Below are positions 16,113-18,319 of a stretch of 64,000 bases of DNA, piece by piece. Origin of the DNA: Octopus vulgaris (lineage: Eukaryota); contig OX597815.1 in the NCBI GenBank assembly GCA_951406725.2, positions 132,246,001-132,310,000 of the forward strand, in the 5' to 3' direction. Both the position numbers and the translations under genes were made by a program. Every line of letters begins with the position of its first letter. Position 1 is the first letter of the stretch. The notes under the pieces were generated by a model. It saw only the letters and a program-made list of their open reading frames with translations. It was not told the origin of the DNA and did no database searches.

Positions 16113-16632
16113 AATTTATTTATATCTATCGTGGCTATTATGTTAAACTGTCGTATGTCCAAATTTGGCCAAATGTACTTTTTTCAATATTTATATTTGT
16201 TGGCAATAGCCGTTTCTTTTGGTCAAACTATCGTATCTCCAGCTTCTTCGGATTCCAAAATATCAAAAATTGTCTAAGTTTTGTACAACGGTTTTGTTAT
16301 GGAATGGTGAAACTATTTTTTGTTTTTCTCGTTTACAGAAAAAGCAACGTTTTGAACTTACGACCCTTTTGTATAATATCAACGAATATATGCATATATA
16401 TAGACGTCGCTTTCTCTCTCTCTCTCTCTCTCTCTCTCTCTCTCTCTCTCTCTCTCTGTATATATATATATATATATATATATATATATATATATATATA
16501 TATATATATATATAGAGGGCATTATTACACATAAATGCCTCACACTAAGAGGGACAAAGTCATTACTACCAAAATTATACTAATCATACCTAAATGCAGT
16601 TTTTCAAAGCAAGACATTTAAAAAATGAATTT

Positions 16633-16690
16633 AGTTCTGTATCACCGTGATTTCACATTCAACTTACGTCTTATGATCCTCAGCAGAACT
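16633..16690 (-). ncRNA. Type I hammerhead motif, family A
   Basis: Minus strand AGTTCTG-CTGAGGA-tCAT...ATGt-GAAA-TCACGGTGA-TA-CAGAACT; 7-bp stem I. Confidence 0.8.
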
Positions 16691-17112
16691 GATTCTGAAC
16701 ACATCATAAATAAACTACCAACCTTACGTAGCGAAGACGAACAGACAACTGCCCACTCCGGCCAAGCACATGGAATGTTTATAAATCATATATCCGGTAA
16801 ATGGCGGGCTTTTTAGGAACTGCATGTCGGGTAATGAAAAGTATTTCGGAATAAGTTTAACAATTAAGGATAATCTCTTAATAAGGGATCTTAACAAGAA
16901 ATTATCGGGTAGTTAGCGTGAAAACCTCATAAAAGAAAAGAATTCGAAAATAATTTTTTTCTTTTGAACAAATTAATTATATCTATATTGTATAGAGGGC
17001 ATTATTACACATAAATGCCTCACACTAAGAGGGACAAAGTCATTACTACCAAAATTATACTAATCATACCTAAATGCAGTTTTTCAAAGCAAGACATTTA
17101 AAAAATGAATTT

Positions 17113-17166
17113 AGTTCTGTATCACCGTGATTTCACATTCAACTTACGTCTTATGATCCTCAGCAG
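17113..17166 (-). ncRNA. Hammerhead motif, family A, stem I truncated by the inversion junction
   Basis: Core intact; only 3 bp of stem I remain. Confidence 0.6.
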
Positions 17167-17211
17167 GTAGTTTATTTATGATGGTAGTTTATTTATGATG
17201 TGTTCAGAATC

Positions 17212-17269
17212 AGTTCTGCTGAGGATCATAAGACATAAGTTGAATGTGAAATCACGGTGATACAGAACT
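17212..17269 (+). ncRNA. Type I hammerhead motif, family A
   Basis: AGTTCTG CTGAGGA ... GAAA TCACGGTGA TA CAGAACT; predicted cleavage after 17262. Confidence 0.8.
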
Positions 17270-17691
17270 AAATTCATTTTTTAAATGTCTTGCTTTGAAA
17301 AACTGCATTTAGGTATGATTAGTATAATTTTGGTAGTAATGACTTTGTCCCTCTTAGTGTGAGGCATTTATGTGTAATAATGCCCTCTATACAATATAGA
17401 TATAATTAATTTGTTCAAAAGAAAAAAATTATTTTCGAATTCTTTTCTTTTATGAGGTTTTCACGCTAACTACCCGATAATTTCTTGTTAAGATCCCTTA
17501 TTAAGAGATTATCCTTAATTGTTAAACTTATTCCGAAATACTTTTCATTACTCGACATGCAGTTCCTAAAAAGCCAGCCATTTACCGGATATATGATTTA
17601 TAAACATTCCATGTGCTTGGCCGGAGTGGGCAGTTGTCTGTTCGTCTTCACTACGTAAGGTTGGTAGTTTATTTATGATGTGTTCAGAATC

Positions 17692-17749
17692 AGTTCTACT
17701 GAGGATCATAAGACGTAAGTTGAATGTGAAATCACGGTGATACAGAACT
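17692..17749 (+). ncRNA. Type I hammerhead motif, family A (one stem I mismatch)
   Basis: AGTTCTA CTGAGGA ... GAAA TCACGGTGA TA CAGAACT. Confidence 0.7.
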
Positions 17750-18319
17750 AAATTCATTTTTTAAATGTCTTGCTTTGAAAAACTGCATTTAGGTATGATT
17801 AGTATAATTTTGGTAGTAATGACTTTGTCCCTCTTAGTGTGAGGCATTTATGTGTAATAATGCCCTCTATACAATATAGATATAATTAATTTGTTCAAAA
17901 GAAAAAAATTATTTTCGAATTCTTTTCTTTTATGAGGTTTTCACGCTAACTACCCGATAATTTCTTGTTAAGATCCCTTATTAAGAGATTATCCTTAATT
18001 GTTAAACATATATATATATATATATATATATATATATATATATATATATATACATACATATATGTATGTGTGTGTGAGAAAAAGAGATGACACAAGAATA
18101 AATGATTATTTTATGAACTATATATATATATATATATATATATATTATATACACATAAGAGATTGAACATGTATATAGTTCTACCAATTACACTTGGGGT
18201 TATATTTCAAAAGTCTTCGTTTTGGCGCGCCAAAATACCGGAAATAATTCTGCAGAAAACAATTCTCTGCCGTGAATTGTCCCGGTTAGACAACATAGTT
18301 ATTTAAATTTAAGATTAAA

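Follow-up and report, generated by a model that had tools for sequence, protein, structure and literature searches.

The window, as the whole analysed stretch of 64,000 nucleotides of Octopus vulgaris DNA is called here, holds an insertion of a 480-bp tandem repeat which, judged from its sequence, appears to be a new family of non-LTR retrozyme and which is very probably moved by the machinery of Penelope-like elements (PLEs). Its most informative feature is a set of two fixed 3' ends, A and B, which are paired A+B in two-armed insertions; the initial annotation of this DNA had missed that pairing. The favoured reading is that of a non-LTR retrozyme likely copied by a PLE reverse transcriptase (RT)-endonuclease, probably of Neptune type, with a predicted circular RNA as template. 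That this is a self-cutting RNA parasite which a PLE enzyme copies is likely because the hammerhead fold is conserved, two fixed ends lie beside (TA)n and hundreds of near-identical copies are present. The retrozyme class is already known, and what is added here is the insertion footprint.

At the window locus the unit has a period of 480 bp and its positions are numbered u1 to u480, u1 (17263) being the first base past the predicted cut. Two arms meet 5'-to-5' and the 3' end of each enters (TA)n (Table 1). The arms mismatch at 5 of 656 positions and the two units of the plus arm at 2 of 346. Four cores of the form CTGAGGA...GAAA lie at 16683(-), 17163(-), 17219(+) and 17699(+). The initial annotation had described non-coding tandem units with one hammerhead each, head-to-head arms between (TA)n, four CUGAGGA/GAAA motifs, the triplet AUA and cutting predicted to fall after 17262, and all of this was recovered, the hammerhead, which is of type I, by descriptor. 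Its 7-bp stem I is intact in two of the four motifs only, 17219(+) and 16683(-), being cut by the arm junction in 17163(-) and altered by a G>A change at 17698 in 17699(+). Likewise, the proposed 480-nt monomer 17263-17742 keeps its predicted bounds, but in this copy its 3' ribozyme is weakened because the G>A at 17698 breaks the stem-I pair beside the core. Since the junction truncates 17163(-) and the mismatch weakens 17699(+), no window arm holds two intact ribozymes, and the window copy is probably a poor source of the monomer. The short filler at the junction of the arms is likely the product of re-priming while the arms were joined.

Table 1. Coordinates of the retrozyme insertion and its parts within the window
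Feature	Positions	Strand
Target microsatellite, (TA)n half on the left, with (CT)n before it	16459..16514	
Arm 1 (u434-480 + u1-480 + u1-129); 656 nt, 1.37 units; 3' end at site A	16511..17166	-
Type I hammerhead, 7-bp stem I intact; cut predicted to fall between 16640 and 16639	16633..16690	-
Hammerhead; arm junction leaves 3 nt of the stem-I 5' strand	17113..17166	-
Junction filler of 15 nt, duplicate of the initial bases of the plus arm (17-bp tandem 17166-17200)	17167..17181	+
Arm 2 (u400-480 + u1-480 + u1-265); 826 nt, 1.72 units; 3' end at site B	17182..18007	+
Type I hammerhead; predicted cut after 17262, AUA triplet	17212..17269	+
Stem I of the 17219(+) hammerhead	17212-17218/17263-17269	+
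Core of the 17219(+) hammerhead	17219-17225	+
GAAA of the 17219(+) hammerhead	17248-17251	+
Helix II of the 17219(+) hammerhead; U.U at its base, loop G>A at 17235	17226-17247	+
Full 480-nt unit, predicted monomer	17263..17742	+
Conserved hairpin (17363-17384), then site A (u129-136, 17391-17398)	17363..17398	+
Conserved hairpin (17476-17513), then site B (u264-269, 17526-17531)	17476..17531	+
u366-393, LINE insertion cluster in other copies; window copy without LINE	17628..17655	+
Hammerhead with G>A at 17698, a stem-I mismatch beside the core	17692..17749	+
Right (TA)n half of the target	18008..18067	

The hammerhead is well distinguished from chance. When the unit was shuffled 2000 times with its dinucleotides kept, no descriptor match with a 7-bp stem I arose, and 40 shuffles of the window gave only matches with a 5-bp stem I, at 0.1 per shuffle. 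Rfam listed no hammerhead-family match among 150 of the 178 window rows and none in 17 of 17 region rows; its microRNA matches in the window are explained by an inverted repeat and microsatellites. Covariation was assessed on 17 distinct hammerheads, hand-picked from the window and 44 distinct motifs and spanning the subfamilies: 96.9% of cells were paired, against 23-45% in controls with slid partners. Both sides had changed in 7 of 15 pairs (stems I and II), and stem III was without variation. Kinship among the motifs inflates these counts; nonetheless at least three different stem-I sequences each retain pairing. The core is kept across genomic copies and sister subfamilies, varying only at N7 and, in one subfamily, by U4C, and the base of helix II is U.U in the window subfamily and G-C, G-U or A-U in the sister subfamilies. 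The monomer folds with z = -3.88, none of 100 shuffles folding equally well. The hammerhead fold itself lies 1.4-5 kcal/mol above the minimum-energy fold in the window subfamily, which, like the U.U of helix II, counts against the favoured reading. No Met-started frame of a natural trimer is longer than 33 aa in sense or 69 aa in antisense, and the GC content is about 31%. Lack of coding capacity, GC below 50% and one type I hammerhead per unit are features by which retrozymes are recognised, and no LTR-type layout was seen in the arrays analysed.

The genome searched comprises 2.8 Gb in 227 contigs. A search of it with the unit found 1635 candidate places; the 40 of these that were scored hold 195 matches, with full units 95-100% identical, and a 24-nt core motif matched exactly 351 times genome-wide, in agreement with the earlier view of a recent element. 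Sister subfamilies, reached via loose ends of public contigs, gave 134, 689 and 1046 motif matches; they repeat every 459-501 bp and are locally about 65-94% identical to the window unit. The window locus is thus one insertion of a young dispersed subfamily within an older clan of units of about 460-500 bp. Copied length ranges from less than one to about 8 units in the window subfamily and reaches about 30 in a sister subfamily, where one arm that ends at B carries 31 hammerheads over about 15 kb (L280-L281, G000:C1:64.64-64.66 Mb), each unit being 0-2 mismatches from the first. In a sequencing run of a second organism (X17) contigs cover 30 of 30 bins of the unit.

The window contains a second family of hammerhead repeats as well (23200-24620 and 27250-28200), with a period of about 562 and a palindromic stem III. 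It is likewise head-to-head, two-ended and placed in (TA)n, and it is not significantly similar to the 480-bp unit. Further unrelated type I motifs occur in the flanks of L153, L034 and L205, so that several families of ribozyme repeats are present in the genome.

The 3' ends were counted by hand in 37 fetched stretches and the window (38 altogether), in which 67 pieces stop before a unit is complete; five of these were set aside, namely three LINE junctions, an assembly gap and a rearranged piece. Among the 62 real 3' ends, 25 lie at A (u129-136), 33 at B (mostly u264-270, one at u278) and 4 elsewhere, so that 58 of 62 are at A or B, and nearly all of them run into (TA)n. Neither fixed end coincides with the predicted cut site. 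Both are internal to the unit, each directly 3' of a hairpin conserved across subfamilies, and both are retained in sister subfamilies at about 70-88% identity. In a first sample of two-armed insertions, biased to long arrays, 21 of 24 were A+B and 3 had one odd end; a second sample, drawn from 40 loci of the motif lists, gave 20 A+B and 3 odd among 23. Combined, 41 of 47 two-armed insertions are A+B, 6 have one odd end, and the combinations A+A and B+B do not occur. Insertions with a single arm, joined to (TA)n, also occur. A target-site duplication, which in non-LTR retrozymes exceeds 4 bp when there is one, is unreadable because the insertions sit in (TA)n. Twin priming in the style of L1 was ruled out, the arms overlapping in sequence and the 5' ends of arms not lying at site A.

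Such a pattern is known from PLEs. According to the accessible part of Craig 2021 (PMC8557442), PLEs have an inverted 5'-truncated copy, (TA)n targets and a tail of 30-40 bp, frequently at one end only. Frangieh 2024 (PMC11167929) gives two internal RT starts on the RNA as the bounds of the tail; the PLE protein used there in vitro, a dimer by prediction, nicked AT-rich DNA on both strands and began copying at these starts. The 480-bp family displays the features of a non-autonomous PLE derivative, namely partial tandems, 5' truncation, an inverted 5' copy and a (TA)n target, and the interval from A to B gives a tail of about 130 nt. Because its ends, A+B pairing and (TA)n targets match the published features, the unit behaves like a PLE substrate, with a tail 3-4 times longer. 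The helper proposed in the initial annotation, a PLE, is accordingly judged probable. Spread and amplification of a satellite at the DNA level, by unequal exchange or extrachromosomal circles and with a vestigial ribozyme, is very improbable. Homogeneous arrays of up to about 15 kb and partly shared variants could stem from exchange after insertion, but retrotransposition is marked by 3' ends that are fixed, by 5' truncation of variable extent, by (TA)n targets and by the A+B rule, the hammerhead covaries, and as a means of dispersal this explanation is already largely refuted.

The candidate for the helper came from a GIY-YIG fragment beside one array, which led to a family with a 775-aa frame of RT and GIY-YIG and a period of 4271 bp; nearly all of its 150 scored matches are 99% identical. 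The element is very young and has two ORFs, with frames of 454 aa and 775 aa (for example L142, G000:C1:27.84 Mb, and many other loci), and its domain order and cysteine linker point to a Neptune-like family by the criteria of PMC8557442. It is inserted in (TA)n with two fixed ends, paired A+B in 14 of 14 two-armed loci hand-chosen from the match list, and it has a minimal hammerhead with U4C and with U.U at helix II. The distance from the hammerhead cut to the first end is 142 nt, compared with 136 in the 480-bp unit, and the tail is about 27-35 nt, compared with about 130. Altogether three active PLE families (775, 811 and 1312 aa) are found in the genome, with copies 97-100% identical and long open frames. 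Young elements of the other two lie at L269 and L324, the one of 811 aa with an upstream ORF and the one of 1312 aa with a C-terminal endonuclease-like end; the 1312-aa family has a TA-rich terminal repeat. Both are TA-associated, and no hammerhead was found in either by descriptor. BLASTN of the unit against the non-coding parts of the three and of one old Neptune-like family revealed no homology, so the helper is not named by sequence. The 775-aa family can be put forward as the helper only tentatively, at somewhat less than an even chance. A short motif located 36 nt before site A in the unit and in the 775-aa family was dismissed as chance, its pairing partner being absent from most Neptune-like ends. 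For the other types of hammerhead no reliable link to a PLE ORF was seen in any of the fetched loci, except the 775-aa family's own. Old PLE remnants are present in the window at 4182-5240, 60559-62767 and 37330-37380; they comprise an RT-like frame (no Pfam match), a Neptune-like ORF that is broken and, on the minus strand, a hammerhead-like motif of minimal type.

If the unit were the pseudo-LTR of an unsampled coding PLE, the arrays would be its ORF-less remnants. The insertion geometry is entirely PLE-like, the comparison covered four PLE families only, and in the accessible part of Li 2026 (10.64898/2026.07.22.740005) 24 of 57 Xenopus retrozyme families were tied to known transposable elements, nearly all of them PLE termini. 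Nevertheless this explanation is improbable: no PLE frame is continuous with the unit in 37 long flanks or in 85 sister loci of 3 kb, the ORFs inside arrays belong to an L1-type LINE with target duplications, and the period of 460-500 nt is kept across subfamilies that are 65-88% alike. At L046 (3117-3400) an array stops inside the hammerhead and adjoins a Neptune-like 3' fragment of opposite orientation, which is likewise counted against this explanation. In the loci examined, the check on this point proposed by the initial annotation thus came out in favour of its reading of the element as retrozyme-like, as did its check on conservation of the hammerhead core among copies, and that reading is supported as a whole.

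With regard to the template, upstream extension was measured at 102 occurrences of u1-19 in fetched loci from contigs C1 to mid-C5. The cut site was crossed in 99 of these passages and 3 stop within 2 nt of it; this pile-up of 5' ends is not significant (3 of 102 against 0.9 expected, P about 0.07) and is counted against the favoured reading. Motifs flanking the cut site on its two sides are equally frequent genome-wide (351 and 351). Both results imply that a cut linear monomer is not the usual template. Both arms of an insertion carry one haplotype: in 21 of 23 arm pairs every diagnostic column present in both arms is the same, where 20,000 permutations gave a mean of 4.6 such pairs and 12 at most, and each of the other two pairs differs at one diagnostic column, which fits each insertion having been copied from one source haplotype. 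Cut-site crossing together with this sharing is compatible with either a circular or an uncut multimer template. Among the variants, 129 calls are fixed within a locus, including 8 substitutions fixed in all covering units of one locus and fixed at no other; 71 are singletons and 15 are common to some, not all, units of an array. The last group is not predicted by a single monomer circle and is counted against the favoured reading. At L032, L049 and L058 substitutions are common to non-adjacent units of one array, a pattern for which multimer templates, later exchange between units or an error of assembly may each be the cause. A joint that goes back 480 in contigs of four sequencing runs, two of them only presumed to be RNA and two of unknown kind, was discarded as a sign of circles, because a genomic tandem gives the same joint.

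The same element with the same PLE helper could instead be copied from an uncut multimer, transcribed by read-through of existing arrays; the ribozyme would then set the transcript ends or act late, and a circle would not be required. Cut-site crossing is predicted here too, as are common haplotypes if one source array is active, and the 15 partly shared calls are accounted for. Frangieh 2024 (PMC11167929), in its accessible part, reports that cleavage is dispensable for in vitro insertion and that uncut RNA is the main substrate. L043 and L063, moreover, carry the same 1.7-kb LINE at identical junctions, as if a cargo-bearing array had been copied. Against this, the haplotypes of the two loci differ and the LINE copies may therefore be independent. 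The 8 locus-private substitutions and the near-identical 31-unit arm require concatenation of monomers at some step; no ordered pattern of unit-specific variants common to different loci was visible by eye; and the long covariation of stems I and II implies that cleavage matters. Copying from such transcripts is therefore regarded as a real but rather unlikely alternative. Haplotype sharing and the long homogeneous arm favour repeated copying of one monomer, as on a circle, and a circular monomer is considered the likelier main template, with modest confidence.

Several arrays are interrupted by an intact L1-type LINE (frames of 495 aa and 1133 aa; Pfam endonuclease, RVT_1 and zf-RVT), which we take to be Tx1-like. 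Seven LINE 3' ends are joined at u366-389, a cluster of 24 nt detected with a gapped pattern that covers that stretch only; the 5' junctions, where visible, lie at u380-393, and the array interruptions show overlaps of 5-28 nt. As a control, 4 of 72 other 5' breaks proved to be LINE junctions, all within u366-393, and the other 68 had no LINE end in the flank shown. Chance expectation, by our own estimate from a target of about 10 kb, 2.8 Gb and about 1500 LINE-end candidates, is about 0.005. The insertions at u366-393 look like at least four independent events, and the stretch is a LINE hot spot, not an exclusive target. Targeting of the retrozyme alone was ruled out, as 3 of 30 LINE 3' ends lie in the unit and 27 elsewhere, many of the latter abutting the 5' end of another LINE copy. 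The LINE, or a related ORF1-only element of 1.7 kb, is found at u366-393 in L031 (2457-7743), L043, L062, L063, L159 and L284; the 5.3-kb insert of L031 was rejected as a helper because it is this LINE, which elsewhere forms tandem arrays of about 5.3 kb. That the unit is a SINE-like passenger of the LINE is extremely improbable: seven LINE 3' ends do lie inside the unit, yet the LINE interrupts arrays with overlaps, 27 of its 30 3' ends are elsewhere, the unit has no 3' tail in common with it, and the ends of the unit obey the PLE rule. A separate 184-bp tandem SINE-like repeat in the window (10279-10648) has a 3' end matching the last 40 nt of the LINE, and these two possibly form a LINE-SINE pair.

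The mechanism proposed under the retrozyme reading comprises five steps. An array would be transcribed, and adjacent hammerheads, as predicted from published retrozymes, would cut after AUA and free the 480-nt monomer, which a host ligase would circularise. The helper, probably a dimer, would nick both (TA)n strands, a step modelled on the enzymology of Frangieh 2024. One cDNA would be primed at A and one at B, each just 3' of its conserved hairpin. The cDNAs would run back for a variable length through the junction of cutting and ligation; the crossing is observed, and the circle is its presumed basis. Finally, joining of the two truncated cDNAs 5'-to-5' gives the head-to-head structure that is observed, often with microhomology or filler at the junction.

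The family can be placed beside several known systems. Metazoan non-LTR retrozymes of mussel, coral and axolotl (Cervera and de la Pena 2020, PMC7229834), the source of retrozyme circles and of the PLE-helper hypothesis, are, in the accessible part of that paper, also short AT-rich non-coding tandems in which every unit bears one type I hammerhead; their monomer is well folded, and PLEs co-occur. The U.U mismatch recurs in axolotl HHR_Amex2, again at the base of helix II, and cleavage there is weak in the monomer and better in the dimer. In contrast, the 480-nt unit exceeds their range of 150-450, and circles and cleavage were demonstrated there and are predicted here; the part of that text available makes no mention of a pair of fixed 3' ends, of head-to-head arms or of (TA)n targeting. 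Vertebrate retrozymes (Li, Clavereau, Pollet 2026) are likewise non-autonomous and PLE-linked, and their wider range of 51-972 bp includes the present unit. In the portion of that work at hand it is already argued that animal retrozymes are non-autonomous PLEs, and cleavage is reported in only 1 of 9 dimers tested. Their link to PLEs consists of co-occurrence and pseudo-LTR homology, whereas that of the 480-bp family is the insertion footprint, with no homologous pseudo-LTR in four families. The family agrees with retrozymes in every feature that was assessed on sequence. With the Neptune, Hydra and Naiad PLEs (accessible parts of PMC8557442 and PMC11167929) it has in common partial tandems, 5' truncation, an inverted copy that lacks its 5' part, a tail on one side only, (TA)n targets and two internal RT starts downstream of the hammerhead, and it differs in having no ORF, a tail of about 130 nt instead of 30-40 and a full-stem ribozyme instead of the minimal type. 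Non-autonomous Chlamys elements of green algae, such as MRC1, are also non-coding, multicopy, head-to-tail PLE derivatives; unlike the 480-bp unit, they generally have a 3' end similar to that of the autonomous partner, and canonical hammerheads are missing from most Chlamys (Craig 2021, PMC8557442, accessible part). Literature searches on octopus and cephalopod retrozymes, hammerheads, Neptune or Penelope elements and their inverted or twin-primed copies listed no prior description of the family.

A more speculative proposal, offered here as a rather doubtful one, is that the element is an old protein-free RNA circle which, having no sequence likeness to its helper, mimics Penelope RNA by shape alone, through two hairpin-marked starts 130 nt apart; under this proposal a protein-bound promoter of the unit would be what the LINE hot spot at u366-393 marks. 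If this were true, one RT dimer or particle would prime both (TA)n strands from different starts and roll round the circle. The strict A+B rule would then preserve in the genome the trace of a coupled mechanism with two starts that PLEs have in common, and the lineage would have kept its ribozyme, size and start sites while outliving or switching helpers.

What moves animal retrozymes, and whether a circle is copied, has so far been proposed, as far as the accessible sources go, from co-occurrence and terminal-repeat similarity and not from insertion marks. Here the two-start signature of PLEs is seen in dozens of young insertions, beside an intact and very active Neptune-like element that follows the same rule. 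The count of 41 A+B insertions against none of the same type limits how a PLE dimer can use its two starts, and for the in vitro assay already published the family offers a substrate of 480 nt, start sites predicted at two places and a candidate for the enzyme.
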